64,000 nt of DNA from a virus, in IMG/VR virus record IMGVR_UViG_3300045988_163768; one strand, written 5' to 3'. Numbering within the stretch: the first letter of the stretch is position 1; each line of letters starts with the position of its first letter. Below the pieces are notes generated by a model. The model worked only from the letters and a program-made list of their open reading frames with translations, did no database searches and was not told the origin of the DNA. The position numbers were made by a program, and so were the translations under genes. This document shows positions 52,351 through 64,000 of the stretch, piece by piece.

Positions 52351-53514
52351 TTATTTATTTTTCTTATTTCGACAACATTTACATATACTGTAAAAATGAT
52401 CTTTACTTGTCTTATTCTTTGAAAAAAATTTATTATGAGCTAATTTGATTTCCCCACAACGGGAACATTTTTTCCATTTTCCTTTTTTCTGAGTTGTGTA
52501 ATACCAAATTAAATAGTCTTCCTGAGCTTGCTCTGACAATAGCTTAGGTATTTTATTCCGCCATAAAGATGATATATATTCCACTGAATGTTTTACATTG
52601 TGTTTTTGATTCAACAGACTCTGAATTTCAAGATTTTGTTTTCCGTCTATTTTATAAATCAAGAGGTCATAATACATTGGATAACTATCTCTTAGAGTCT
52701 TCTCTATTAATGTATCTAAATCCTCCATTAAAAAATATGAATCACTGTAGAATTTTCCCCATGCATCTTCTTTTAGGCGGGAATAGTTACATAATAATGC
52801 AGATATGTGCTTAGGATTAAAAAAAGAAACTAAGCTATTATCTTCAATTTCATCATTTCCGCTAATAGAAACATTTTCATCAAAATCAATTTTGCTAAAA
52901 CTTTTAATTGCGTTCATACAATAAATTGGCGGCTTGTATGCACTTCTAATTACATATTGATCTTGTCTCATAGCAATAAGTTGCTTTTTTAATAAAAATT
53001 TCTTTTTACCAACTGCTTTTTTCTCAGCTTTTTCGACTTCCGCAATCGCGTCTACAAGTTGCTTTAACTCAGGGATTTCCGCAATATCCTGTTGAGTTAT
53101 TTGAAATTTAGGTGTAAAAATAATATTCTTATCATTGGCGATCATATTATAAATGCCATCTTCGCCATTCTCTAAGCGACCAACTAATCCTTCAAAAGAA
53201 GTTTCTCTTTTATTAACTGTGACCATATGATTATCAGTTAATATTTGCTTCTGTTTCCGCTCTTGTTTATCCATAGCAAAAATAATGTAATCTGATAATA
53301 TTTCTAAATATTTAGGTGTTAATTGCTCAGAAGGAGTCTTATCTATAATTTTTTTAACTAATTCATTCCGCTCTTCAGGAGTTTCTAAAGAATAATCTAG
53401 TTTAATAGTAGTTTGCATATTTTCTTCTTCGATTTGTTTTTCTGTTATTTTTTTTTCTTCTTCTAAAACATTATTCTCCTCAAAAGCCTTATCTTCTAAT
53501 GTTATTGGTGTCAT
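52351..53514 (-). CDS. hypothetical protein with a C-terminal zinc ribbon; first gene of the late operon
   Basis: 387 aa with C-terminal CSRCGE...CKCC. Confidence 0.35.
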   Translation of the reverse strand: MTPITLEDKAFEENNVLEEEKKITEKQIEEENMQTTIKLDYSLETPEERNELVKKIIDKTPSEQLTPKYLEILSDYIIFAMDKQERKQKQILTDNHMVTVNKRETSFEGLVGRLENGEDGIYNMIANDKNIIFTPKFQITQQDIAEIPELKQLVDAIAEVEKAEKKAVGKKKFLLKKQLIAMRQDQYVIRSAYKPPIYCMNAIKSFSKIDFDENVSISGNDEIEDNSLVSFFNPKHISALLCNYSRLKEDAWGKFYSDSYFLMEDLDTLIEKTLRDSYPMYYDLLIYKIDGKQNLEIQSLLNQKHNVKHSVEYISSLWRNKIPKLLSEQAQEDYLIWYYTTQKKGKWKKCSRCGEIKLAHNKFFSKNKTSKDHFYSICKCCRNKKNK

Positions 53515-53541
53515 AATTTCTCCTTTCTAGTTTACAATTAT

Positions 53542-53571
53542 ATTATACCACAAAAAAATTTTTTTGTCAAA
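53542..53571 (-). promoter_or_regulatory. late-operon promoter TTGACA-18-TATAAT (minus strand)
   Basis: Minus-strand TATAAT corresponds to plus-strand ATTATA at 53542-53547, and minus-strand TTGACA to plus-strand TGTCAA at 53566-53571. Confidence 0.5.
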
Positions 53572-53651: not shown

Positions 53652-53999
53652 ATGAAAATTAGTATTCTTGGAAGTCGCGGTTTCGCAGATAATCGCCTAG
53701 TCTCCGCAACTATGGAAGATTTTATCCGCGAAACGCAATGTTATTTATTTACTGTTGTTTGCGGGAATACGGAGAAGAAGCTCTCGGAGTCTATTGGAAA
53801 AATATGGGCAGAAAATAATGGTGCTCCTATTGAATATGTATTTGATCGCAACATAGATAAATTAATTCAGAAAATGGTAGAAAATATTGATTTTGGTATA
53901 TTTTTTTATGACGGAAAAGATGCAATAATTAGAAAAATTATTATGAAAATGAAAATGAATGGAAAGCATGGTAAAGTAATTAAAATAGGAGGAAAATAA
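53652..53999 (+). CDS. DUF2493/SLOG-like Rossmann-fold nucleotide-binding protein (tentative)
   Basis: 115 aa. MKISILGSRGF...VVCGNTE...IWAENNGAPIEYVF...FFYDGKDAIIRKI...KHGKVIKI follows the DUF2493/YpsA-like pattern. Confidence 0.4.
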   Translation: MKISILGSRGFADNRLVSATMEDFIRETQCYLFTVVCGNTEKKLSESIGKIWAENNGAPIEYVFDRNIDKLIQKMVENIDFGIFFYDGKDAIIRKIIMKMKMNGKHGKVIKIGGK

Positions 54000-54209: not shown

Positions 54210-54962
54210 ATGAATAAAAAAGAAAGAGCTATTCAAGCCATAAATCATTTTTATAAAATGGAAAAAGAATATTCAGATAAAATCGCATGGTGTAACGCAA
54301 GAACTAAATATTATAGTGGTTTTGTGCCAGGTTCTATTGCAAATAAAATGAAGAAAATAAATGAAAAAAATCTTAATTATGAAATATGGGAAACTGATAC
54401 TGTTAATGCTATTAAAAAAGCTGTATCTGAATTTCCTGATAGTAAGATTGCCGCACTTAATTTTGCATCTTTTAAATATCCTGGCGGAGGCTTTTTAAAA
54501 GGAAGTAGTACTCAAGAAGGAAGCTTATGTCATAAGTCTATTCTTTATAATATTTTGTGGCGGCAAAGAGAAGATTTTTATGGAGAAAATAAAAACTTAA
54601 TAAATCGCGGTTTGTATTGGAATAGAGCGATTTATAGTCCAAACATTCTTTTTGAAGATTTTTATAATTGTGATATTATTACTTGTGCAGCCCCGAATAA
54701 AAAAGAAGCTAAGCGTAATGGGATAACAGATGAAGAAAATACTAAGGCTTTAAAAGAAAGAATCTCTTTTATTTTAGACATTGCGGCGAAAAATAAAATT
54801 GATGTTCTAATCTTAGGAGCTTTTGGATGCGGAGCTTTTGGTCAAGATCCTAATGAAGTTAAAAAGATATTTATGAAATTATCTAATAATTATATTTTTA
54901 AAAAAATAATTTTTGCTATCCCTAATGGATCTAATTTAGACGCTTTTCGGAGCCTTGTTTGA
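54210..54962 (+). CDS. bacterial-type poly(ADP-ribose) glycohydrolase-like macrodomain protein (DUF2263/TIGR02452-like)
   Basis: ALNFASFKYPGGGFLKGSSTQEGSLC matches the PARG signature LNFAS..PGGGF...(7)..QEE.LC, with QEG in place of QEE. LGAFGCGAFGQDP matches the downstream conserved motif. Confidence 0.65.
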   Translation: MNKKERAIQAINHFYKMEKEYSDKIAWCNARTKYYSGFVPGSIANKMKKINEKNLNYEIWETDTVNAIKKAVSEFPDSKIAALNFASFKYPGGGFLKGSSTQEGSLCHKSILYNILWRQREDFYGENKNLINRGLYWNRAIYSPNILFEDFYNCDIITCAAPNKKEAKRNGITDEENTKALKERISFILDIAAKNKIDVLILGAFGCGAFGQDPNEVKKIFMKLSNNYIFKKIIFAIPNGSNLDAFRSLV

Positions 54963-55478
54963 TATCGCGGGTAGTTTTTAAAGAGAAAATGAGAAATATT
55001 TTTATTTTTTTAAAATCCTCTTTATTTTATTTTATTTTAATTTGTTTAAAAAAATTTTTTGGAGAGATTTTTAATTCTCGTTTTTTGATTTTATTTTTAG
55101 ACTTTTAGATTTGAAAAAATTTTTGGAGAGAGAATTGTGGAGAACACTATCTTTTTATAAAAGTAAAAAATTTTAATCCTTTAATATACCCCGGCATTAT
55201 GTTTAAGTATGGTCTGTAGTTTGAGCATCTCTTTTGAGCAAGAAGCAACAAGACACCGCCTAACAAATAATTTTTCAAATCATTTTCCAAAGAGGATATG
55301 CTTTTTGTTCAGAAGAGTTTTGAACACATTATTTTAAGCAAAGAGGAGAAAGAGTTAAACTAATAAAATAAATTCTTTAAATAACTAAAATAAAGCAAGA
55401 AGATTAGAATTTTTATTGGCTATTGGTAGCTTGCCATCTATCGTCGGAGCGTACACTTTCGCAACGCTCCGAGAAGCC

Positions 55479-55750
55479 TGTCAATAGGCAAAATGCACAA
55501 ATTTTTGGCTAAATTTTTGTAAAAAATGCACAAAGATATTTTCCTAAAATGAACTTGTCAATAGGTAAAATTGTACAAAAATACGTGGAAAATTTTGTGC
55601 ATTATGTCTATTGACAAACCCTGTCAATAGTAAAAGTGTACAAAAATATATTCTCATTTTTGTGTAAAATGTCAATAGACAAAAAATGTCAATAGGCAAT
55701 CTGCACAAAGTTTTAAAGGAAAAATTGTGTAAAATGTCTATTGACAGAAT
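55479..55750. repeat. cluster of about 7 direct and inverted ~23-bp iteron-like repeats TGTCAATAG-N5/6-TG(C/T)ACAAA
   Basis: Copies at about 55479, 55557, 55592 (inverted), 55621, 55665, 55687 and 55724 (inverted); additional copies at 59426, 62806 and 62875. Confidence 0.7.
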
Positions 55751-55770
55751 GAGCTAAAGGTGCTATAATG
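55742..55770 (+). promoter_or_regulatory. promoter TTGACA-17-TGcTATAAT firing into an AT-rich ORF-free tract
   Basis: TTGACA at 55742-55747 (inside the last repeat) and an extended -10 TGCTATAAT ending at 55770. Confidence 0.5.
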
Positions 55771-55789: not shown

Positions 55790-56160
55790 AAAGAAAGATA
55801 ATAATAATAATAATAATAATACAATATTATAACAATACAATACATAAATATAATTAACAATAACATTATCTTATATTATTGTTAATCTTATCAATTATAA
55901 CTATATATAAAGAAGAAATATAATGATAATAATGTTAACATTGGTACTGTAATATCTTATAATAATTATAATAAGATAGTATAATAATAATAATAATAAG
56001 CTTATAAAATAATACTAAATAAAATAGTATGATAATATTTATATTATATTTTATTTTACTATTTATAAAAAAGATATAAATATATATATTTAAAACTAAC
56101 TATTAATCTTAATAACATGAGTAAATATGCATTAAAATAAATAAAAATACTGTAAATAAA
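55790..56160. repeat. extremely AT-rich (>90%) ORF-free tract with (AAT)n microsatellites
   Basis: (ATA/AAT)7 at 55801-55822 and again at 55981-56000; only a handful of G/C in about 370 nt. Confidence 0.6.
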
Positions 56161-56163
56161 GCT

Positions 56164-56192
56164 TGACAATGGTATAATAAGGTAGTATAATA
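56164..56192 (+). promoter_or_regulatory. promoter TTGACA-17-TATAAT
   Basis: TTGACA at 56164-56169, TATAAT at 56187-56192, then a GAGAGG Shine-Dalgarno. Confidence 0.5.
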
Positions 56193-56216
56193 ATACTTGA
56201 AAAGAGAGGTGATAAG

Positions 56217-56495
56217 ATGATAACAATTCAATGCACTTTGTTTAGTGTAACAAATAAGTACAGACCAATAAGTACTTTATTAGAAATTGAGAGTATCAAA
56301 TATTATAACACTCATAAGCAAGAGGTACAGCAAAGGGCTATCGACAAGATAGTAATACAACGTAAAACAGAACGTTGGTGTTTAAAAAGAGACGGATATA
56401 CTAGAATGAAAGTTAGAGTATACGACAAAAAGAAGATTGAAGAAGAAGAAAAAAGAAGATACGAAAAGATTAAGAAAGAAAGAGGTTGGAGTTAG
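56217..56495 (+). CDS. hypothetical small basic protein
   Basis: 92 aa with a Lys/Glu/Arg-rich C-terminus. Confidence 0.35.
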   Translation: MITIQCTLFSVTNKYRPISTLLEIESIKYYNTHKQEVQQRAIDKIVIQRKTERWCLKRDGYTRMKVRVYDKKKIEEEEKRRYEKIKKERGWS

Positions 56496-56500
56496 ACATA

Positions 56501-56764
56501 ATGAAAAAGGTGATTTTAGGATTAATAGTAAGTGCAACTTTAAGTAGTATTTGCGGTTTTGGTAGCTTTACTAAGTATACAAGAGAAGCTAAAGTGATTA
56601 GCTCTTTTAATAATGAAGTGGTTGTTATGGATAGCTACGGGCATGTATGGAGTTTCTACGGGGACGGTTTTAAAGCAAGAGATAAAGTTAAATTATACAT
56701 GGATTCTTTAGGGACTGATAGTGTGACAGATGATATTATTACAGATGCAGAGATAATAGGATAG
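56501..56764 (+). CDS. small secreted protein / possible lipoprotein
   Basis: MKKVILGLIVSATLSSICG signal-peptide-like N-terminus; the ORF-track start at 56486 is probably too early. Confidence 0.35.
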   Translation: MKKVILGLIVSATLSSICGFGSFTKYTREAKVISSFNNEVVVMDSYGHVWSFYGDGFKARDKVKLYMDSLGTDSVTDDIITDAEIIG

Positions 56765-56776
56765 CGGAAAAGCGGG

Positions 56777-56815
56777 AAAAGGGCGGAATAGGTTCAGCCC
56801 TTTTCTTTGCTTATT
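56777..56815 (+). terminator. rho-independent terminator
   Basis: AAAAGGGC...GCCCTTTT stem followed by a T-rich run. Confidence 0.5.
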
Positions 56816-57197
56816 TAGATAAAGTATCTTTTTTGAATTTTATTAAAAAATTTGATATAATAATAATGTAAAGAAAATAAAATATTTAAAAAGGAGATAG
56901 GAAAGAACCGATGAAAAAAAGTCAATCTTAATGAATTGGCGGCTTTACAACTGGTATTTGAATTTATTTCAGTGCCGGAATTACTAACAGCCGCTATGAA
57001 TGACTTTTCTAAAGGTACTAGCATAAAAGATAAAGAAAACGCTGATTTATGCTATAAGGCTTTAGAATCATTCCTTAAATAAAAAAGGGACTCCCGAACT
57101 TGACAGTTCTGGAGTCGGTTCACCTACAATCTCCTTAAGTTCAGGTTTTTTCAGTGGAAATCCGCATAAAAAAATCTTTAGAAATTTTCCTAAAATG

Positions 57198-57226
57198 CTT
57201 GACAAAAGCAAGGAAATATAGTATCA
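57198..57226 (+). promoter_or_regulatory. early promoter unit TTGACA-17-TATCAT plus conserved leader
   Basis: TTGACA at 57198-57203, followed by the conserved leader ATCAAATGAAAGAGAGG. Confidence 0.5.
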
Positions 57227-57259
57227 TAGTATTATCAAATGAAAGAGAGGTAAAGAAAT

Positions 57260-57379
57260 ATGACAATGTTACTGACAACTCGAAAAGCATTTGAAACTGT
57301 AAAAAAATACTTAAAAGATAATCAATACATTTTTTCAGTAGAAAAAAATACAAACGGTTATCTGGTAAAAATTTCTTAA
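57260..57379 (+). CDS. hypothetical 39-aa early peptide
   Basis: Not in the ORF track because it is under 60 aa. Consensus promoter and GAGAGG Shine-Dalgarno 9 nt upstream; MTMLLTTRKAFETVKKYLKDNQYIFSVEKNTNGYLVKIS. Confidence 0.35.
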   Translation: MTMLLTTRKAFETVKKYLKDNQYIFSVEKNTNGYLVKIS

Positions 57380-57393
57380 TGGAGGGCTTAAAT

Positions 57394-57540
57394 ATGTTAG
57401 ATTTAGGATTATTTTTAGGAAGTAAAAAATTGATGTTGGTAGACACTGAGACAGGCGAGATTTACGCTGAAACAATAGAAGAAATTAACGCTTTTTTGAA
57501 AGAGCATGAAAATAACTATTTATTAAGATTACTGAGATAA
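57394..57540 (+). CDS. hypothetical 48-aa early peptide
   Basis: GGAGGG Shine-Dalgarno 7 nt upstream; MLDLGLFLGSKKLMLVDTETGEIYAETIEEINAFLKEHENNYLLRLLR. Confidence 0.35.
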   Translation: MLDLGLFLGSKKLMLVDTETGEIYAETIEEINAFLKEHENNYLLRLLR

Positions 57541-57602
57541 AAACAAGATGGAGTTATGGGGAAAAAAGGAAGATAAAAAATCTTCCTTTTTTTAAAAAAG
57601 GC

Positions 57603-57631
57603 TTGACAAAATAAAAAATATCTGCTATACT
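57603..57631 (+). promoter_or_regulatory. early promoter unit TTGACA-17-TATACT
   Basis: TTGACA at 57603-57608, plus a conserved leader. Confidence 0.45.
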
Positions 57632-57667
57632 TAATATATCAAATGAAAGAGAAAGAGGTTGATAAAA

Positions 57668-57829
57668 ATGAAAAAAACAGATAAAGAAATTTTATTACAG
57701 ATTTTTAAAAAAGCCGACATAGAGATTTGCTATGAGGAAAAGGATTATTTTGAAGCTGAGCTTTCTTCTTATGGTGAAAACATTGGCTTTCAATTTGATG
57801 CTGACGGCAAACTTCAAAAACTTCTTTAA
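57668..57829 (+). CDS. hypothetical 53-aa early protein
   Basis: AGAGG Shine-Dalgarno; MKKTDKEILLQIFKKADIEICYEEKDYFEAELSSYGENIGFQFDADGKLQKLL. Confidence 0.35.
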   Translation: MKKTDKEILLQIFKKADIEICYEEKDYFEAELSSYGENIGFQFDADGKLQKLL

Positions 57830-57847
57830 AACTAATTTAAAATAGGT

Positions 57848-57876
57848 CTTGACAAAAGCCAAGACCTATAGTATAA
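57848..57876 (+). promoter_or_regulatory. early promoter unit with its -35 embedded in a perfect hairpin
   Basis: AGGTCTTGACAAAAGCCAAGACCT at 57843-57866 contains TTGACA; TATAAT at 57871-57876. Confidence 0.5.
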
Positions 57877-57909
57877 TAAATATATCAAATGAAAGAGAGG
57901 AAAACAAAA

Positions 57910-58164
57910 ATGAAAATCAACTTTGATAAAAAAACAGTAGGAACTTGCATCGAGAAATTGACAGTAGGAAGTACTTTTTTTAGTAAAAGAACTGGTACTG
58001 ATGAAATTGGATTATACATGGTTATTGATAAAAGTAGTGGTCTTTTCTTAGACAAACATCAAGGGAAGGTCATGGCAGTTAACCTTGCTACTGGACAGAT
58101 TAGAACCTTTAAAGCATCTCAGAAAGTAGAACCGATTAAAGCTGAAGTTATTCTTCCAAAATAA
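57910..58164 (+). CDS. hypothetical 84-aa early protein
   Basis: The ORF-track start at 57889 lies inside the conserved leader; the ATG at 57910 is the more plausible start. Confidence 0.4.
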   Translation: MKINFDKKTVGTCIEKLTVGSTFFSKRTGTDEIGLYMVIDKSSGLFLDKHQGKVMAVNLATGQIRTFKASQKVEPIKAEVILPK

Positions 58165-58186
58165 AATAAAAAAATAAAATAGGTCT

Positions 58187-58215
58187 TGACAAAAGTCAAG
58201 ACCTATAGTATAATA
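58187..58215 (+). promoter_or_regulatory. early promoter unit, a near-identical copy of the 57848 unit
   Basis: AGGTCTTGACAAAAGTCAAGACCT 10-bp-stem hairpin at 58181-58204; TATAAT at 58210-58215. Confidence 0.5.
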
Positions 58216-58241
58216 AATATATCAAATGAAAGAGAGGAAAA

Positions 58242-58529
58242 ATGGAGTTTTCAAGAGATGAAATAATTGAAATTAAAAAGTATTATCTCAGACGAATGAA
58301 TTCATTCATCAGAAAATACATTAGTGAAGACGTAATAACTAATGTTTGGCTTCCCCTGTTTAAAGATGGATGGAATGATGATATTCTAACAAAGTGTGTA
58401 AGCGATGATGATTCTTGGTGTAATTGTATTAACGCTTATCGCAAATGTTTTGAAATTGAAGGAATTGATTTTTTTAAAAAAGGGGTTGACAAAAAGTCGG
58501 AAATATGGTATAATAAATGTATCAAATGA
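58242..58529 (+). CDS. hypothetical early protein, paralog A
   Basis: 95 aa; SEDVITNVWLPLFKDGWNDDILTKCVSDDDSWCNCINAYRKCFEIEGI. Confidence 0.45.
   Translation: MEFSRDEIIEIKKYYLRRMNSFIRKYISEDVITNVWLPLFKDGWNDDILTKCVSDDDSWCNCINAYRKCFEIEGIDFFKKGVDKKSEIWYNKCIK
58485..58513 (+). promoter_or_regulatory. early promoter unit AAAAAGGGGTTGACA-17-TATAAT
   Basis: TTGACA at 58485-58490, TATAAT at 58508-58513. Confidence 0.5.
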
Positions 58530-58546
58530 AAGAGAGGTAAATAAAA

Positions 58547-58779
58547 TGAGCGTATCAAGAAAAGAGATAGTTAGAATTAGAAAGAATCTTCTTAGACAGA
58601 TGGATGTTTTTATCAGAGAAAATATTAGCGAAGACATTGTCATTGACGTTTGGTTTACTTGTGGGTTAGAAGATGGGTGGGATGAGAGAATCTTGACGCA
58701 GTACGCAAATGATGATGACGCATGGAATGATTGTATTAATGCTTGCAGAAGATGTTGTAAAATTGAAGGAATTTTATAA
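58547..58779 (+). CDS. hypothetical early protein, paralog B of the 58242 gene
   Basis: 77 aa; SEDIVIDVWFTCGLEDGWDERILTQYANDDDAWNDCINACRRCCKIEGI, roughly 45% identical to paralog A. Confidence 0.45.
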
Positions 58780-58786
58780 AAAGGGG

Positions 58787-58815
58787 TTGACAAAATCAGC
58801 TTCTTGTGATATAAT
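58787..58815 (+). promoter_or_regulatory. early promoter unit
   Basis: GGGGTTGACA at 58787-58792, TATAAT at 58810-58815. Confidence 0.5.
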
Positions 58816-58847
58816 AAAGACAGTTAAAGAAAGAGAGGAAAACAATA

Positions 58848-59000
58848 ATGACAAGGACAGAGATGATGGATAAAATGATTCAAGTAAAAGGATTTGAAAA
58901 TGACACAGTAATTATATTCTGTAAAATAGCAGAGAATCAAAACATTTCAAAAGAAATAGTAAAAATTGCTTATGAAGCAATAATGAAACGAAAAAAATAA
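58848..59000 (+). CDS. hypothetical 50-aa early protein
   Basis: GAGAGG Shine-Dalgarno; MTRTEMMDKMIQVKGFENDTVIIFCKIAENQNISKEIVKIAYEAIMKRKK. Confidence 0.35.
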   Translation: MTRTEMMDKMIQVKGFENDTVIIFCKIAENQNISKEIVKIAYEAIMKRKK

Positions 59001-59066
59001 GAAATCACGTGAATTTAATAATAAATAATGAAAATAACTAGTCATAAGCAGAAAAAATTTTTATAA

Positions 59067-59100
59067 CAAAAGTCTAAGTAAATTAGACTTTTGTTTTTTG
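59067..59100 (+). terminator. rho-independent terminator
   Basis: CAAAAGTCTAA...TTAGACTTTTG stem followed by T6. Confidence 0.55.
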
Positions 59101-59163
59101 TGCAAAATGCTGAATTTTATTTTTGTGCAAAATGACGAAAATAAAAAATTTTTTAAAAAGGGG

Positions 59164-59259
59164 TTGACAAGTCGCGGAAAATGTGTTATAATAGCCGGCT
59201 CGCGAGCAGTCAATGCGAGCCGAGCCTTCCATTATAACATAGTTGAGACATTTTGTCAA
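59164..59259. promoter_or_regulatory. convergent promoter pair 1: + strand TTGACA-17-TGtTATAAT and - strand TTGACA-17-TGtTATAAT bracketing a GC hairpin
   Basis: Plus-strand -35 at 59164-59169 and -10 at 59187-59192. GC hairpin GGCTCGC...GCGAGCC at 59197-59221. Minus-strand -10 at 59231-59236 (ATTATA) and -35 at 59254-59259 (TGTCAA). Confidence 0.5.
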
Positions 59260-59328
59260 GAGAAAAAATGCACAAATTTTTCAAAATTTTTATCCCAAAA
59301 TTTGTGCATTTTTTTTTGAAAAAAACTC

Positions 59329-59432
59329 TTGACAAGGTGGCTCGAGTATGTTATAATGAAAGAGGGCAAAGTCCGTTCGGGGTCGGGGCACCCCGAAATT
59401 TTATTATACCACATCTAGCACCTTTTTGTCAA
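59329..59432. promoter_or_regulatory. convergent promoter pair 2 bracketing the hairpin TTCGGGGTCGGGGCACCCCGAA
   Basis: Plus-strand TTGACA at 59329-59334 and TATAAT at 59352-59357. Hairpin at 59376-59397. Minus-strand -10 ATTATA at 59403-59408 and -35 TGTCAA at 59427-59432 (spacer 18). Confidence 0.5.
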
Positions 59433-59737
59433 TAGGCAATTTGCACAAAAAATAAATTAAAAAAATCCCATTTTTTGACATGGTATACAAAATGCACAAA
59501 ATTTAATAAAATAATACCAAAATTTTCTACACCTTGTGCAAAGTGACGAAATTTTAATAAAAAATCATACCTTTTTTGACACGCAGAAACACAATATGTG
59601 ATATTTAAGGTAGCAAAATGCACAAGAATCCGCCTAAATCCGCATTATTTTTCTACATTTGTATATTTTGACAAAAATACTATGATTTTTATATAAAATT
59701 TCATCACTTTTGCACAATAAAAAATAAATTTGACTTT

Positions 59738-59766
59738 TTCGCTAAGATGTAGTAATATATACTTGT
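59738..59766 (+). promoter_or_regulatory. promoter TTGACT-17-TAATAT upstream of the HAD hydrolase gene
   Basis: Promoter TTGACTTTTTCGCTAAGATGTAGTAATAT, followed by an 85-nt leader with GC hairpins. Confidence 0.4.
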
Positions 59767-59870
59767 CAAAGGACATTAAACTTAAATCAGAAATAAAGCA
59801 AAGCTTACATAATGAGCGGTCGGTCGCAAGGCACTTGCGATAATCAAAAAAGAAAGGATTGATAATTATT

Positions 59871-60344
59871 ATGATGGATAATACAATTAAAGAAATGATG
59901 AGCACAAAGGGAACTATTTATTTTGACATGGACGGCACACTTGCTAACTTCTACGGCGTGGAAAACTGGTTAGCATATTTGGAAAAAGAAGACACTACAC
60001 CATACAAAGTAGCAAAACCACTTTTTAATTTTTCAGTTTTCGCAAGAGTGCTTCACAAGTTACAAGCTAATGGCTATAGAATTGGTATTGTAAGCTGGTT
60101 AAGTAAAAGCGGGTCAGCTTCTTATAATACGGCGGTAACAAGTGTAAAACTTGCATGGCTTGAAAAACACTTACCTAGTATTAAATGGGATGAAATCAAA
60201 ATTGTAAACTATGGTACACCAAAAAGTACTGTCGTTGATTGCAAGGGGTGGCTTTTTGATGATGAAGAAAAAAATCGAATCGAGTGGGGAAAAGGTGCTT
60301 TTGATGTAAATAATATTATGGAAATCTTAAAAAGTTTTTTATAG
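59871..60344 (+). CDS. HAD-superfamily hydrolase (5'-nucleotidase-like)
   Basis: The FDMDGTL DxDGT motif I is present near the N-terminus; about 158 aa. Confidence 0.55.
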   Translation: MMDNTIKEMMSTKGTIYFDMDGTLANFYGVENWLAYLEKEDTTPYKVAKPLFNFSVFARVLHKLQANGYRIGIVSWLSKSGSASYNTAVTSVKLAWLEKHLPSIKWDEIKIVNYGTPKSTVVDCKGWLFDDEEKNRIEWGKGAFDVNNIMEILKSFL

Positions 60345-60361
60345 AAAGTAGGTGATAGAAT

Positions 60362-60541
60362 ATGATGGATAAAGCAATCAGAAGTGGTAAAGAACATAGA
60401 AAAGAATACCGCAGAGCAAAAGCAAAGTCAATGTCATGCAGAAATCATGGTTCATGCACTCATTGTTTAAACAATAGGTTGCATAAATATAAAATTAAAG
60501 AGTTGTCTACGAACCAACAGTTAAAAGATTTTAAAAAATAA
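60362..60541 (+). CDS. hypothetical 59-aa basic Cys/His protein (possible zinc binder)
   Basis: Not in the ORF track because it is under 60 aa; GGTGA Shine-Dalgarno; ...KSMSCRNHGSCTHCLNNRLHKYKIKEL... Confidence 0.3.
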   Translation: MMDKAIRSGKEHRKEYRRAKAKSMSCRNHGSCTHCLNNRLHKYKIKELSTNQQLKDFKK

Positions 60542-60551
60542 ACGAAAGTGC

Positions 60552-60580
60552 TTGACTTTTAAGCTAAGATGCGATATAAT
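60552..60580 (+). promoter_or_regulatory. promoter TTGACT-17-TATAAT inside a 64-bp perfect direct repeat (copy 1)
   Basis: Repeat at 60542-60605, identical to 61333-61396. Confidence 0.5.
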
Positions 60581-60635
60581 ACCATTGTAACAAGTTAATA
60601 GTAAAAAAAATAAATGAAAGTTGAGGAAATCAAAA

Positions 60636-61346
60636 ATGAGTAGAAGAAAAGAGTTTTTCATGGTATTGGATACAGAAACTGCGAATAGTGTAAATGAACC
60701 AATCCCTTATGATATTGGCTATGCTATTACAGATAGACACGGTAACATTGTCACCGAAAGAAGCTTTGTAGTCGCTGAGACATTTATTGACTTGAAAGAA
60801 GCTATGAATAGTGCCTACTACGCTGAAAAAATTCCGAAATACTGGGATGATTTAAAAAGCGGAAAAAGAACCATGAAAAGCATTTTCAATATTAGAAAAC
60901 AGATGTTTGCAGATATGAGAGAATATAATGTGAAAAAAGTTGGTGCTTACAATATGAATTTTGATAGAAAAGCATTAAACAATGCTATTAGATACCATAG
61001 CAAAAGTTTTATTCGCTGGTTTTTCCCTTATGGTACAGAATATTTTTGTATTTGGAACATGGCTTGTCAGATGATTTTAAGTACAAACACCTATATCAAA
61101 TTTGCTGAGAAAAACGGATTTGAGTCTGAAAAAGGCAATCTTTTAACTAATGCTGAGGTATGCTATAAATATATTAAAAAGAATATTGATTTTGTAGAAT
61201 CTCATACAGGCTTAGAAGATGTAAAAATTGAAATCGAAATTCTAAAAAAATGTTTTGACCAGCATAAAAAAATGGATAGAAGCATTAAGCCGTCATGTTG
61301 GAGACTTCCGCAGAAAAAAAGAAAAGAATTACACGAAAGTGCTTGA
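60636..61346 (+). CDS. DEDDh (DnaQ-like) 3'-5' exonuclease
   Basis: MVLDTETAN is an Exo I D-x-E motif, and HTGLEDVKIE is an Exo III H-x4-D motif. The ORF-track start at 60621 lies upstream of the ATG at 60636. Confidence 0.5.
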   Translation: MSRRKEFFMVLDTETANSVNEPIPYDIGYAITDRHGNIVTERSFVVAETFIDLKEAMNSAYYAEKIPKYWDDLKSGKRTMKSIFNIRKQMFADMREYNVKKVGAYNMNFDRKALNNAIRYHSKSFIRWFFPYGTEYFCIWNMACQMILSTNTYIKFAEKNGFESEKGNLLTNAEVCYKYIKKNIDFVESHTGLEDVKIEIEILKKCFDQHKKMDRSIKPSCWRLPQKKRKELHESA

Positions 61347-61371
61347 CTTTTAAGCTAAGATGCGATATAAT
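61343..61371 (+). promoter_or_regulatory. promoter inside the 64-bp direct repeat (copy 2)
   Basis: Identical to the 60552 unit. Confidence 0.5.
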
Positions 61372-61419
61372 ACCATTGTAACAAGTTAATAGTAAATTTT
61401 AAAAAGGATGTGATATAAC

Positions 61420-61794
61420 ATGGCTAAAACAACAGTGACCGCAGATGCAATCGAAAAGCTTGCTATTAAGCTGATGAAAGAATTTGAAGCGGACGGAGAA
61501 CCGGTAACTAAAGAGGAAGCTCTTGAAATGGCGGAAATGGAAATTAAGGCTAAAGGCATTAAGAACTATGTTCAGAGTACACCAGAGAAAAAAAGCACGA
61601 AAAAACGTGAGGTAAAATTGGACGCGGAAAAAGTCAAAATCATTGAAATTTTGGCAAGTCACTTGAAAGAAGTTGAGGAAATGAACTTTGAAAGTGTGAC
61701 AATCGCAAATCCGCAAAAAGAAATTACTTTCAAAATTGGCGGTGCGGAATATTCAATTTCGTTAATCAAACATAGACCACAAAAGAAAAAATAA
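61420..61794 (+). CDS. hypothetical Lys/Glu-rich protein
   Basis: 124-aa ORF with a GGATG-type Shine-Dalgarno. Confidence 0.4.
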   Translation: MAKTTVTADAIEKLAIKLMKEFEADGEPVTKEEALEMAEMEIKAKGIKNYVQSTPEKKSTKKREVKLDAEKVKIIEILASHLKEVEEMNFESVTIANPQKEITFKIGGAEYSISLIKHRPQKKK

Positions 61795-61802
61795 AAAAAT
61801 GC

Positions 61803-61831
61803 TTGACAATAGCAAAGAAAAGTAGTATAAT
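61803..61831 (+). promoter_or_regulatory. promoter TTGACA-17-TATAAT
   Basis: Promoter GCTTGACAATAGCAAAGAAAAGTAGTATAAT. Confidence 0.5.
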
Positions 61832-61948
61832 AACATTGTAGCAAATCAATAAATAAAATATTTTCAGCGGTTCGGATGGTCAGCAAAATCGACCACCGAC
61901 CGCAAGCCACCAAAAAAATTTTAAAAGAAAGAAAAGGGGAATTTGATT

Positions 61949-62356
61949 ATGACAAACACAAACAAAATGACAAAAAAAGACTTTTTTAAACTGCTGGCAG
62001 GTATCGTAGAAAAAACAGAAGATTTTGACAAGAAAACAGAAACACTTGACTTTATCAATCACGAGATTGAACTGTTAAATAAGAAATCTTCAGCACCAGG
62101 CAAAAAGAAAACAGCTCACATTAAAGAAAATGAGGAGCTTATGGAACTTATTGGAATTGCCTTAGAGCTGTTTGGTAAACCTGTCACGATAACTACAATG
62201 ATTAAAGAGAACGCCGAAATGAGTAAGCTTTCTTCTCAGAAGTTGTCTGCACTGTTGAAAAAAATGATTGAAGCCGGCAAAGTGGTCAGGACAGTTGAAA
62301 AAAGAGTTCCTTACTTTTCTCTTGCAAAAGAAGAAGAAACTGAGAAAGAAGAGTAA
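61949..62356 (+). CDS. hypothetical protein, paralog of the partial gene at 63619
   Basis: 135 aa. The HEIELLNKKSS...LELFGKPVTITTMIKEN...VVRTVEKRVPYFSLAKEE block is shared with the paralog. Confidence 0.45.
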   Translation: MTNTNKMTKKDFFKLLAGIVEKTEDFDKKTETLDFINHEIELLNKKSSAPGKKKTAHIKENEELMELIGIALELFGKPVTITTMIKENAEMSKLSSQKLSALLKKMIEAGKVVRTVEKRVPYFSLAKEEETEKEE

Positions 62357-62386
62357 AACTAAAAAGTAACTTATAAACCTTGTCAA

Positions 62387-62421
62387 GAGGGCGGATTACA
62401 CAAAATCCGTCCTCCTTTTTT
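62387..62421 (+). terminator. rho-independent terminator
   Basis: GAGGGCGGATT...AATCCGTCCTC stem followed by T6. Confidence 0.5.
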
Positions 62422-62644
62422 GTGCATTTTTTTTCTACTTTTTGCACAAAAAATCCGCTGCTGGAGGGATGTTTTTTATTTAAAAATACCAGAGAACAAA
62501 AAAGTCAATGCACATAAATTACAAAAATAGCCAAAAAATTTTTATAATTTTGGTATTGTTGCACAAAGAGTCCCAGTCTATAATTTTGTGAAAATGTAAC
62601 AAAAATAAGGCTCAAAAAATTTTTTATTTTGTTTATTTTGCCTA

Positions 62645-62738
62645 TTGACAAGCACCCGAAAGTGTGGTATAATAGCGGGTCGCCTTGGATCAAGGCGACC
62701 GAAATATCCATTATACCATACGCTGACGATTTTGTCAA
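62645..62738. promoter_or_regulatory. convergent promoter pair 3 bracketing the hairpin GGTCGCCTT-GGATC-AAGGCGACC
   Basis: Plus-strand TTGACA at 62645-62650 and TGGTATAAT ending at 62673. Hairpin at 62678-62700. Minus-strand -10 ATTATACCA starting at 62710 and -35 TGTCAA at 62733-62738. Confidence 0.5.
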
Positions 62739-63004
62739 GAGAAAAAATGCACAAAAATAAAAAACTTTTTATCCCAAAATTCTCCGTTTTGCACAAAAAT
62801 CTCTGTCAATAGGTAAAATGAACAAAATTTTATATCAAAATCCGCCAATTTTCTCTATTATGCACAATGCTAAACCTGTCAATAGTCAAAATAGACAAAA
62901 TATTTTATTATATTTTGTGTAAAATGCCATTGACTTTTATTTTTTCTTTTGATATAATGTATACATAAAATAAATAAGAAATAAGAAATAGGAAGGTGGT
63001 ACTT

Positions 63005-63280
63005 ATGTTAGAAAAAATTTTAGACCGCTTAGAAGCGGATTTAGAAAAAGGTGGTTTTTGGAATAGTGATAGTTATAGCTATAATTATAGCTATAATGCT
63101 ATTAATGATTTATTAGAATCCTATCAAAAAGAAGGATGGGAGTTTGAATTTGATATTGATTTTATTGAATATCTTAATCCAAAACAACCAAATATTGTAA
63201 GCTTTTCTCTTGCCTGGATTGAAGAAGGTAAGCTTATGACTCAAGTAGTTTTGTGGGAACAAGAAAAAATAAAAAAGTAA
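63005..63280 (+). CDS. hypothetical protein
   Basis: 91 aa from the ATG at 63005 (AGGAAGGTGG Shine-Dalgarno); the ORF-track GTG start is at 62996. Confidence 0.4.
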   Translation: MLEKILDRLEADLEKGGFWNSDSYSYNYSYNAINDLLESYQKEGWEFEFDIDFIEYLNPKQPNIVSFSLAWIEEGKLMTQVVLWEQEKIKK

Positions 63281-63309
63281 TTGACAAAAGCAAAAAAGTA
63301 TGCTATAAT
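63281..63309 (+). promoter_or_regulatory. promoter unit TTGACA-17-TATAAT plus leader ATCAAAAGAAAGAAAGAGG
   Basis: Near-identical to the unit at 63563-63591. Confidence 0.5.
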
Positions 63310-63342
63310 AAATATATCAAAAGAAAGAAAGAGGTATTGACT

Positions 63343-63531
63343 ATGAGAACAATGAATTACACAAAAGGTTTTGCAAGCATGAGAAAAGCTGATTTTATCA
63401 AACTCTGGAATACAGACTTTGTGTTCAGAAATTTTGCAAAGAATAAAGGTATTAACGTTATCCAGAATAATGTTATCTTTTTCAATGCTGATGGCTCTGT
63501 TAAGTCTATTGCTGGTGCTTACATTAAGTAA
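63343..63531 (+). CDS. hypothetical 62-aa protein
   Basis: ATG at 63343 after the conserved Shine-Dalgarno; the ORF-track start at 63253 overlaps the promoter. Confidence 0.35.
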   Translation: MRTMNYTKGFASMRKADFIKLWNTDFVFRNFAKNKGINVIQNNVIFFNADGSVKSIAGAYIK

Positions 63532-63562
63532 GCACCAGAAAAGAAAAAAAATAAAAAAGTAA

Positions 63563-63591
63563 TTGACAAAAACAAAAAAGTATGCTATAAT
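63563..63591 (+). promoter_or_regulatory. promoter unit, a copy of the 63281 unit
   Basis: Promoter AATTGACAAAAACAAAAAAGTATGCTATAAT. Confidence 0.5.
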
Positions 63592-63618
63592 AAATATATC
63601 AAAAGAAAGAAAGAGGTA

Positions 63619-64000
63619 ATGAATATGATGAAAGACAAAATGACAAAAAAAGATTGGTTTGAAACCATTAGAGCTTTTCTGGAAGAAAGTGACTTTGAAC
63701 TAAAAGAAGAAGCACTTAACTTTCTCAGCCATGAAATCGAGCTGTTGAATAAAAAATCTTCCAGCGGTAAAAAAACCAAAAATCAGAAAGAAAATGAGGA
63801 AATTAAAAAACTCATTCTTGTGGCTCTGGAGTTATTTGGTAAACCTGTTACAGTTACAACCATGATTAAAGAAAACTCTGAGATGAACAAACTTTCTCCT
63901 CAGAAGTTATCGGTTCTTCTTAAACAGCTTGTCGAATCCGAAGAAGTGGTTAGAACTGTTGAAAAAAGAGTTCCTTACTTCTCTCTTGCAAAAGAAGAAG
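63619..64000 (+). CDS. hypothetical protein, partial (runs off the window end), paralog of the 61949 gene
   Basis: MNMMKDKMTKKDWFETIRAFLEE...SHEIELLNKKSS...LELFGKPVTVTTMIKENSEMNKLSPQKLSVLLKQL...VVRTVEKRVPYFSLAKEE. Confidence 0.4.
   Translation, partial: MNMMKDKMTKKDWFETIRAFLEESDFELKEEALNFLSHEIELLNKKSSSGKKTKNQKENEEIKKLILVALELFGKPVTVTTMIKENSEMNKLSPQKLSVLLKQLVESEEVVRTVEKRVPYFSLAKEE

Follow-up and report, generated by a model that had tools for sequence, protein, structure and literature searches.

Portable promoter–leader cassettes and face-to-face promoter/hairpin elements in the probable early arm of an uncultured SPbeta-like gut phage

The 64,000-nucleotide (nt) stretch of viral DNA analysed here (IMG/VR record IMGVR_UViG_3300045988_163768; hereafter, the window) carries, between about 55.7 and 63.6 kb, a dense array of promoters interspersed with small open reading frames (ORFs). 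It is likely that this region is the sigmaA-dependent early arm of an SPbeta-like siphophage with a genome of about 136 kb, and consists of a hyperplastic array of portable regulatory cassettes. The best-supported reading, which is drawn by analogy, is that the array would represent in a different phage lineage the principle of the PeSLs of T4-type phages, i.e., mobile regulatory cassettes for which a circle-insertion model of recombination has been proposed (Arbiol et al. 2010, PMC2839356; Comeau et al. 2014, PMC4122927). The natural inference from the promoter sequences is that the region would be transcribed by the RNA polymerase of the host, ahead of any phage factor.

Perfect promoter sites, defined as TTGACA and TATAAT separated by 16–18 nt (12/12 matching bases), were counted on both strands of the whole window, and the expectation was taken from block shuffles. 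There are 18 perfect sites, compared with 0.16 expected and a shuffle maximum of three, and 15 of the 18 lie within 55.7–63.6 kb. A first-pass annotation of this DNA had listed 16 promoter positions in the region, and a site of the sigma-70/sigmaA type is found at every one of them. The promoter listed at 59738 exists but is weak (TTGACT-17-TAATAT, at 59730), and the list as a whole, although real, omitted two promoters on the plus strand (55741 and 62930) and three on the minus strand (59259, 59432 and 62738). The sites of the array are:

Plus strand, 12/12: 55741, 56163, 57849, 58186, 58486, 58787, 59164, 59329, 61803, 62645, 63281, 63563
Plus strand, 11/12: 57199, 57603, 60552, 61343, 62930
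Plus strand, 9/12: 59730
Minus strand, 12/12: 59259, 59432, 62738

The layout had been described as more than 15 near-identical cassettes with an almost invariant leader, each driving a tiny ORF of 39–135 amino acids (aa). The cassette repeat is real, but its count is lower: there are eight copies of one cassette type, which we call class I, and three of a second; the leader is common to the eight units only, and those of the others differ. The ORFs are of 39–236 aa; three of the promoters are each followed by two ORFs (A and B, D and E, K and L), and three others (59164, 59329 and 62645) drive no ORF, each of these being opposed, across a GC-rich hairpin, by a perfect promoter on the minus strand.

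The class I cassette comprises 77 nt of promoter and leader (repeat family D1, with copies at 57190, 57594, 57840, 58177, 58477, 58778, 63272 and 63554). Upstream there is a tract rich in A; the −35 hexamer is often covered by a stem-loop or GGGG box; the promoter reads TTGACA-17-TATAAT; and the purine-rich leader, of 18–29 nt, ends in GAGAGG 6–9 nt before the ATG, the distance from the end of the −10 box to the ATG being 25–36 nt. The leader ATATATCAAATGAAAGAGAGG occurs four times at two mismatches or fewer, the distal leader variant ATCAAAAGAAAGAAAGAGG twice, and the box AAAAAGGGGTTGACAA three times. The stem-loop over the −35 hexamer is ATAGGTCTTGAC-AAAA-GTCAAGACCTAT in the window and GGGGTTGAC...GTCAACCCC in relatives, so the “GGGG box” of the earlier description is the 5′ half of a stem; at 58486 and 59164 this half is present without its partner. 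T5 early promoters of the PN25 type and the SP82 polypurine 5′ mRNA stabiliser likewise combine a consensus promoter, an A/T-rich start and a purine-rich leader of the GAGAGG type, a resemblance in design only. The second cassette type (family D8; copies at 60533, 61324 and 61784) has a different, longer leader. The cassettes and the units that they form are listed here, with ORFs lettered as in the list given further below:

57190–57266, plus: class I cassette, promoter 57199 (11/12), common purine-rich leader; drives ORFs D and E
57594–57670, plus: class I cassette, promoter 57603 (11/12); drives ORF F; presence/absence breakpoint of an unrelated 79-aa gene
57840–57916, plus: class I cassette, promoter 57849 (12/12), 10-bp stem-loop over the −35 hexamer and spacer (fold −14 kcal/mol, z-score (z) −5.5); drives ORF G
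58177–58253, plus: class I cassette, promoter 58186 (12/12), 12-bp stem-loop over the −35 hexamer; drives ORF H
58477–58553, plus: class I cassette, promoter 58486 (12/12), GGGG box; drives ORF I; right-hand junction of the G and H deletion of L014
58778–58854, plus: class I cassette, promoter 58787 (12/12), GGGG box, variant leader; drives ORF J
63264–63348, plus: class I cassette, distal variant, promoter 63281 (12/12); drives ORF Q
63546–63630, plus: class I cassette, distal variant, promoter 63563 (12/12); drives ORF R
56163–56812, plus: unit with promoter 56163 (12/12) and its own leader; ORFs A and B; terminator 56770–56812 at its end
59730–60541, plus: unit with weak promoter 59730 (degenerate second-type copy) and 104-nt leader; ORFs K and L
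60533–61346, plus: second-type cassette unit, promoter 60552 (11/12); drives ORF M
61324–61794, plus: second-type cassette unit, promoter 61343 (11/12), 96% identical to the cassette at 60533; drives ORF N
61784–62414, plus: unit with promoter 61803 (12/12) and 117-nt leader with a GC-rich hairpin; ORF O; terminator 62387–62414 at its end

Significant terminator folds are found at 56770–56812, 57561–57593, 59065–59095, 59262–59316 and 62387–62414. Thus, terminators proposed earlier at 56777, 59067 and 62387 hold; that at 57100–57153 folds no better than shuffled sequence (z −0.9) and was rejected, and those at 57561–57593 and 59262–59316 had been overlooked.

Four independent assemblies of the same phage (the window and contigs L010, L013 and L014), which are 96–99.9% identical, differ in gene content only at cassettes, and every breakpoint lies inside a cassette. 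At 57594–57617, the unrelated 79-aa gene, which has its own promoter, is present together with ORF F in L013 and L014, the window has F only and L010 has the 79-aa gene only; the breakpoints fall in the −35 hexamer or spacer of one cassette and in the −10 box or leader of the next. In L014, G and H are absent, and the leaders of the cassettes with promoters 57849 and 58486 are fused to a single cassette. At 63264–63346 there is an insertion of one extra gene in L013 and of two in L010, flanked by a duplicated 83-nt cassette. The single genes G, M and Q are bracketed by those cassette pairs of the window that resemble each other most, at 96–98.5% identity:

57838–57904 and 58175–58241, plus: 98.5% identity (67 nt)
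60533–60605 and 61324–61396, plus: 96% identity
63264–63346 and 63546–63628, plus: 96% identity

This pattern is the footprint that would be expected of homologous recombination between direct repeats, including the Campbell-type insertion of a circle made up of one cassette and one gene. One 135-kb contig of the phage has its assembly break exactly at the repeat cassette 58177–58253. In the relative L055 (5330–5570), three tandem promoter cassettes with leaders have no ORF between them; these may be “empty” remnants after gene loss.

The mechanism that we propose has three steps. A class I cassette would ensure strong transcription and translation of the ORF downstream of it by the host machinery alone; the stem-loop, where present, would probably attenuate read-through from the upstream unit; and homologous recombination between cassettes, to be expected because they are near-identical direct repeats, would delete, duplicate, insert and swap single-gene units, the comparative footprint being that seen among the four assemblies. 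Recombination of this kind would thus lead to fast turnover of ORFans around the core genes K, M, N, O and R.

The likeness to PeSLs is manifold. PeSLs are repeats of about 80–100 nt with an AT-rich upstream tract, a consensus early promoter for the host sigma factor, a Shine–Dalgarno sequence and a start codon; they are concentrated before ORFans in a hyperplastic region, and their motifs bound the insertions, deletions and replacements that distinguish close relatives. The PeSL stem-loop (often polyG then polyC) lies over or beside the promoter, whereas here only some cassettes have one. A further difference is that the most conserved part of the cassettes described here is the leader downstream of the −10 box, and the host virus is an SPbeta-like siphophage with Gram-positive-type signals rather than a T4-type myovirus. 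As the phage is not T4-like (it has a YorL-type polymerase, a YonG_N protein and a 2842-aa tape-measure protein), the cassettes are to be regarded as an analogue of PeSLs and not as members of that family, and comparison of the two gave no evidence of common descent. Cassette-mediated gene shuffling, described for T4-type coliphages, would then extend to an SPbeta-like gut phage that is uncultured and very common and whose expression signals are of the Gram-positive type. This suggests a general, convergent way for large phages to try new small genes without upsetting their own regulation.

Several points weigh against this reading. Stable stem-loops are present in only three of the eight class I cassettes of the window (57849, 58186 and 58787), and in relatives a stem-loop over the −35 hexamer, typically GGGGTTGAC...GTCAACCCC, is found at 46 of 234 perfect promoters compared with 23 in shuffles, an enrichment of only two-fold. 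The location of the breakpoints in cassettes is partly forced, because viable insertions and deletions can lie only between genes, where nearly all of the DNA is cassette; the duplicated cassette flanks are therefore a stronger argument than the position of breakpoints. Conservation of the leader could result from selection for expression, or from an unrecognised operator, and not from recombination. Lastly, early timing, promoter strength and the terminator activity of the stem-loops are inferred from the DNA.

The ORFs of the array are as follows:

56217–56495, plus: ORF A, 92 aa; homologues at the same position in relatives; 14 synonymous to 4 non-synonymous changes
56501–56764, plus: ORF B, 87 aa; hydrophobic N-terminus; 13 synonymous to 6 non-synonymous changes
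57260–57379, plus: ORF D, 39 aa; invariant between strains
57394–57540, plus: ORF E, 48 aa; 9 synonymous and 1 non-synonymous change between strains
57668–57829, plus: ORF F, 53 aa; 4 synonymous and 0 non-synonymous changes
57910–58164, plus: ORF G, 84 aa; phrog_7431 and relatives (several PHROGs of unknown function)
58242–58529, plus: ORF H, 95 aa; tandem paralogue of I
58546–58779, plus: ORF I, 77 aa; paralogue of H, with a normal end
58848–59000, plus: ORF J, 50 aa
59871–60344, plus: ORF K, 157 aa; NT5C-like 5′-deoxynucleotidase
60362–60541, plus: ORF L, 59 aa; Cys/His-rich; 11 synonymous and 8 non-synonymous changes
60636–61346, plus: ORF M, 236 aa; DEDDh 3′–5′ exonuclease
61420–61794, plus: ORF N, 124 aa; unknown function
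61949–62356, plus: ORF O, 135 aa; three helices followed by a winged helix-turn-helix
63005–63280, plus: ORF P, 91 aa; driven by promoter 62930
63343–63531, plus: ORF Q, 62 aa
63625 to beyond 64000, plus: ORF R, 131 aa; winged-helix paralogue of ORF O

Between strains, codons of the array differ by 124 synonymous and 48 non-synonymous changes, which argues that the ORFs are real and under purifying selection; ORF D, being invariant, is uninformative in this respect. The four ORFs of fewer than 60 aa that the first-pass annotation had noted as missing from the ORF track (D, E, F and L) are all present, and gene calls on independent ENA contigs include each of them. Searches of Pfam, PHROGs and NCBIfam gave no match for A, B, D, E, F, H–J, L, N, P and Q, and sequence searches of the Protein Data Bank (PDB) with the array ORFans were essentially empty. 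The family of ORF M numbers more than 4300 proteins from metagenomes, in which the DxE, D and Hx4D motifs (D12, E14, D110, H190 and D195 in ORF M) are invariant, and the AlphaFold2 model of ORF M (predicted local distance difference test score (pLDDT) 85.7) matches the folds of DnaQ, RNase T, oligoribonuclease (Orn) and TREX1; by motifs and fold, ORF M is a DEDDh 3′–5′ exonuclease. The model of ORF O (pLDDT 78) has Foldseek matches to ArsR/SmtB, PadR, MarR, HxlR and Z-alpha domains, and relatives of O and R are labelled “HxlR family” or “DUF4364” in their sources. Most related loci also have K, M, N, A, C and the O family, but this does not hold for the other small ORFs, and the array is therefore made up of a conserved core interleaved with variable ORFans.

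The reading frame of ORF H meets no stop codon ahead of the following cassette and continues across promoter 58486, so that the protein acquires a tail of 18 aa specified by promoter and leader DNA. A small ORF at 56911–57082, behind a weak promoter at 56833, is broken by a run of seven A (56914–56920); L010 has six A and an intact ORF of 56 aa, and homologues are also found in distant relatives. The break is one of three things: a homopolymer sequencing error, a fresh frameshift, or a slippage-prone phase variation.

The layout had been likened to the host-takeover regions of SPO1 and T5. Strictly taken, this would mean that the products are toxic early effectors that shut off transcription, replication, division or defence of the host, and that the layout serves solely for fast, hard expression, which we think possible but rather doubtful. 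The SPO1 host-takeover module spans about 12 kb, in which early genes, for the most part small, are served by numerous strong sigmaA promoters and strong ribosome-binding sites (PMC6873191). The hallmarks given there for SPO1 genes 37–60 are matched by the layout of the array, with its dense consensus host-type promoters, strong ribosome-binding sites and small, mostly orphan genes. The SPO1 module is located in the terminal redundancy of the genome, and its products shut off host macromolecular synthesis. Also consistent with takeover is that most array ORFs are orphans yet under purifying selection, and that PARG/TIGR02452 and SLOG-like proteins, possible counter-defence enzymes, head the same strand. 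Against it, there is no homology to characterised takeover or anti-defence proteins, including gp37–gp60; those array genes that are conserved code for winged-helix regulators, a nucleotidase and a DEDDh exonuclease; comparison of strains shows the small ORFs to be dispensable; and the non-coding promoter/hairpin elements described below are left unexplained. A tblastn search with 15 array ORFs found no homologue in cultured phages, SPO1 and T5 included, among 50,697 phage records, and matched only unannotated “Bacteriophage sp.” contigs from human faeces. Thus, the layout is of the same design as in SPO1, but the proteins lack homologues in SPO1, T5 or other cultured phages, and for this reason “host takeover” stays an analogy. 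It is, moreover, compatible with an array of portable cassettes, which distinguish the core (K, M, N, O/R and A) from cargo that is recent and dispensable (F, G, H, Q and the strain-specific genes of 79, 107 and 69 aa), the cargo offering a defined shortlist for anti-defence or host-interference screens.

The array includes three non-coding hubs, in two of which lie face-to-face promoter/hairpin elements (E1–E3), the part of the region that is furthest from anything described:

55438–55770, no strand assigned: hub 1; GC hairpin, three tandem 65-bp blocks, box-bearing promoter 55741 (12/12)
59001–59729, no strand assigned: hub 2; bidirectional terminator 59065–59095, TGCACAAA boxes, E1, two-box terminator 59262–59316, E2, more boxes
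62415–63004, no strand assigned: hub 3; TGCACAAA/TGTCAATAG boxes, E3, box-bearing promoter 62930 (11/12) driving ORF P
59164 (plus) and 59259 (minus): E1; perfect pair around a 38-nt, 68% GC hairpin at 59193–59230; no ORF
59329 (plus) and 59432 (minus): E2; perfect pair, 45-nt centre, hairpin 59376–59397; no ORF
62645 (plus) and 62738 (minus): E3; perfect pair, 36-nt centre 62674–62709, 10-bp GC stem, 3′ flank CGAAATATCC; no ORF

The hubs share two boxes, both of which are conserved in relatives: 15 of the 18 window copies of TGCACAAA (2.5 expected in the whole window) and all 12 exact copies of TGTCAATAG lie within them. On the other strand, the composite unit reads TTTTGTGCA-N6-CTATTGACA, in which the box precedes a −35 hexamer by about 10 nt. 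Promoters with this TTTRTGCA box make up a second class, whose members are more than simple gene promoters and to which belong 55741, 62645, 62930 and all three minus-strand promoters, and this box is also found upstream of the equivalent promoters in relatives. In hub 1, each of the 65-bp blocks (55556–55746) is an inverted pair of TGTCAATAG-N6-TGyACAAA units, the last of which provides the −35 hexamer of promoter 55741; the three-block arrangement looks like a triple operator. The leader of ORF O has a GC-rich hairpin at 61866–61905 (z −3.1), which starts with CAGCGGT, like the hairpin that follows a fourth box-bearing promoter at L009 13668.

In E1–E3 the facing −10 boxes are 36–45 nt apart, and the hairpins are 58–68% GC. 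The centre of E1 varies between strains, its central 26 nt being exactly inverted in L013 (6504–6541) and 13 nt being deleted in L014 (7328–7352), with the flanking promoters the same in both; inversion and shortening are as expected of a quasi-palindrome. A pattern scan found perfect face-to-face pairs in at least 119 IMG/VR viral contigs, compared with fewer than one expected by chance from base composition. These pairs fall into several unrelated families, and about one third of the matches listed belong to the GC-hairpin family of E1 and E3, whose centre of 36–39 nt consists of nGGCCGG, an 8-bp stem with a loop of 9–11 nt, and CGAAATTTCC, with boxes on both sides. Among the matches listed, members of this family occur on contigs of 28–48% GC and up to 197 kb, in three to four copies per genome, after terminators at operon boundaries and with a fixed polarity relative to the direction of the flanking gene; at 26 of 37 loci listed, an O-family gene is present in the same fetched stretch, usually within about 1 kb.

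Covariation was assessed on 30 distinct copies of the E1/E3 family among the matches listed, E3 included, against 500 shuffles. The stem is paired in 90.8% of cells, compared with 68.9% in shuffles, and double-sided changes number 52 vs 19, a value reached by none of the 500 shuffles; the stem covariation score is 0.54, and falls to 0.08 or less when the partners are slid by 1–3 columns. As pairing and covariation both exceed those of shuffles, the hairpin structure is under selection. The hairpin has no preference for one RNA strand, with 7 G·U-type and 4 A·C-type pairs among 211 Watson–Crick pairs. No Rfam family was matched by the array or the 8 kb beyond the window, where the only hits were chance-level microRNA matches (E at least 0.09). 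Two candidate identities were tried and rejected. A mimic of a CRISPR repeat (a solitary repeat unit or RNA anti-CRISPR) gave no array-pattern match in 241 million metagenome records, searched for exact matches to E3 and the commonest family hairpin. A single-stranded-DNA hairpin promoter of the Frpo/sso type would pair the spacers within an element, but their complementarity is 7.66/17, compared with 7.57 ± 0.38 for shuffled partners.

Winged-helix genes and TTTGTGCA boxes adjoin the elements, which are placed at operon boundaries. At slightly less than even odds, the face-to-face elements, the TTTRTGCA boxes and the O-family genes make up an undescribed, widespread class of phage regulatory module at early-operon boundaries, which may produce short, 5′-hairpin-capped pairs of sense and antisense RNA or may act as an insulator or switch based on RNA polymerase. 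As a working model, the face-to-face pairs would be regulated boundary nodes, in which the sense promoter would feed the next operon with a transcript capped by a 5′ hairpin, the head-on promoter would oppose read-through or make antisense RNA, and the TTTGTGCA/TTTRTGCA boxes would be putative operators for the adjacent winged-helix proteins. Against this model stand the contig L017, which has O homologues and no exact TGCACAAA, and the O genes of L100 and L055, which have their own promoter. With clear covariation and no described counterpart, the family may be a new element of transcriptional control.

In phage 186, the start sites of pR and pL are 62 bp apart, whereas those of the pairs described here would be about 22–31 nt apart, with a covarying GC hairpin as their overlap; a further difference is that here there are no regulatory genes immediately downstream and that the elements are present in several copies per genome. 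The likeness to the pR/pL switch of 186 and P2 lies in two strong, close, convergent promoters with repeated operator sites for a small DNA-binding protein (PMC3675496).

An unlikely account of the array as a whole is that its promoter element is conserved because one master repressor binds all copies and silences the lytic genes in the lysogen. In SPbeta, the master repressor MrpR binds a conserved promoter, the SPbeta repeated element (SPBRE; PMC10516654). The phage described here is SPbeta-like; its box-bearing promoters and hubs carry the conserved, operator-like TTTRTGCA/TGTCAATAG motif; and in both phages a promoter-containing element is repeated between genes of the rightward arm. However, the SPBRE has another sequence, TAGACAAAnACAAATAATATGTATATAAT (upstream of yorE, yorZ and yosX), no match to which is found at the array promoters at four or fewer mismatches, and SPbeta has about 10 copies and only three sites of at least 11/12 in 44 kb. 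No homologue of MrpR (YopR), YonR, AimR, YopP or YopQ was found at E ≤0.01 in the window and L009 (71 kb of the ~136-kb genome), and the class I spacers have nothing in common beyond TTGACAAAA and the TG-extended −10 boxes.

The distribution of the leader bears on the same point. A 29-nt sequence of −10 box plus leader is present, exact, in eight GTDB contigs and eight IMG/VR contigs. Those of 27–37% GC carry the same dense arrays (L012, L017, L021 and others), L021 having, within 11 kb of its coding strand, 24 sites of at least 11/12, of which 21 are perfect. L001, L003, L004 and L005, which are contigs of Lachnospiraceae metagenome-assembled genomes (MAGs) with 45–48% GC, have only the −10 box and leader in common with the array and are otherwise unrelated elements, in which the promoter lies within the palindrome TATTACGCAATATGTA-TTGACA-TATTGCGTAATA. 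That these elements have the same −10 box and leader argues for a leader tuned to the machinery of the host and not to a phage-specific regulator. Being identical across unrelated elements of gut Clostridia, the 29-nt signal is a candidate portable high-expression signal for poorly tractable hosts.

It is improbable that the face-to-face elements are origins of replication, in which convergent transcripts would form stable R-loops in the GC centre and prime leading-strand synthesis in both directions, with TGCACAAA as iterons for the winged-helix proteins. Such an origin would account for a GC-rich core within a genome of 30% GC, surrounded by repeated boxes and DNA of very high AT content, and for the linkage of the elements to exonuclease and nucleotidase genes, and there is a resemblance to the promoter-dependent origins of T4, T7 and ColE1; but three to four copies at operon boundaries of one genome speak against it, as do the O-family proteins, which are small winged-helix proteins typical of transcription factors. 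The sequence TTATCCCAA, downstream of E1 and E3, has two mismatches to the DnaA-box consensus, and was set aside. That the promoters are chance matches or an assembly artefact in AT-rich DNA can be dismissed, for although the genome is about 30% GC and a generic scan does return many weak promoter matches (105 vs 70 expected), the perfect sites exceed expectation about 100-fold and are strand- and region-specific, and the same array is found in independent assemblies from different samples and collections.

As judged from its genes, the window belongs to a distant SPbeta-like siphophage that is common in gut metagenomes. It is about 30% GC, with genes on the plus strand at 1–10 kb, on the minus strand at 10–53.5 kb, and on the plus strand from 53.6 kb to the end. 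The YorL-type DNA polymerase (1304 aa) has 37% identity to SPbeta YorL over 97–99% of its length, and NrdD, portal, terminase, the 2842-aa tape-measure protein and a YonG_N-domain protein are also encoded. Megablast of the region found no nucleotide-level relative among the 50,697 deposited phage records, whereas the same phage is present as contigs of 134–141 kb in many ENA, JGI, NCBI and Logan assemblies, and one of its protein clusters is found on 132 contigs. Among the sources of related contigs are gut samples of humans, mice and ruminants, together with MAGs that carry a gut Clostridia label. The gene layout is like that of SPbeta around yonO/yonP and yonR (leftward late genes, a divergent non-coding region and a long rightward arm), and the promoter array forms the start of the rightward arm, adjoining the divergent start of the late/structural operon.

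On the minus strand, the first gene behind the perfect promoter 53570 encodes a 387-aa protein (52351–53570) that matches a PHROG “sigma factor” family (phrog_5767, 1.5e-51), and may be an early-made switch for the leftward late operon. The first genes of the plus-strand arm encode a SLOG/YspA-like protein (53652–53999; weak Pfam match) and a microbial PARG/TIGR02452 macro-type protein (54210–54962; 1e-50), an ADP-ribose-processing type of pair that could have a counter-defence function. Promoter 55741 reads into an ORF-free tract of about 370 nt (55790–56160), which is about 88% AT with (AAT)n runs, and at a distance of about 10 kb, immediately past the array, there is an (ATT)n tract that mirrors it (L009 15335–15400), so that two AT-rich tracts bracket it; their similarity is of low complexity only, and a role as bracketing inverted repeats was rejected. 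After the last array gene there are about 850 nt of CT-rich, ORF-free DNA (L009 14446–15300, ~1.1–1.9 kb past the end of the window), beyond which come palindromes, AT-rich repeats and then a GIY-YIG gene on the minus strand.

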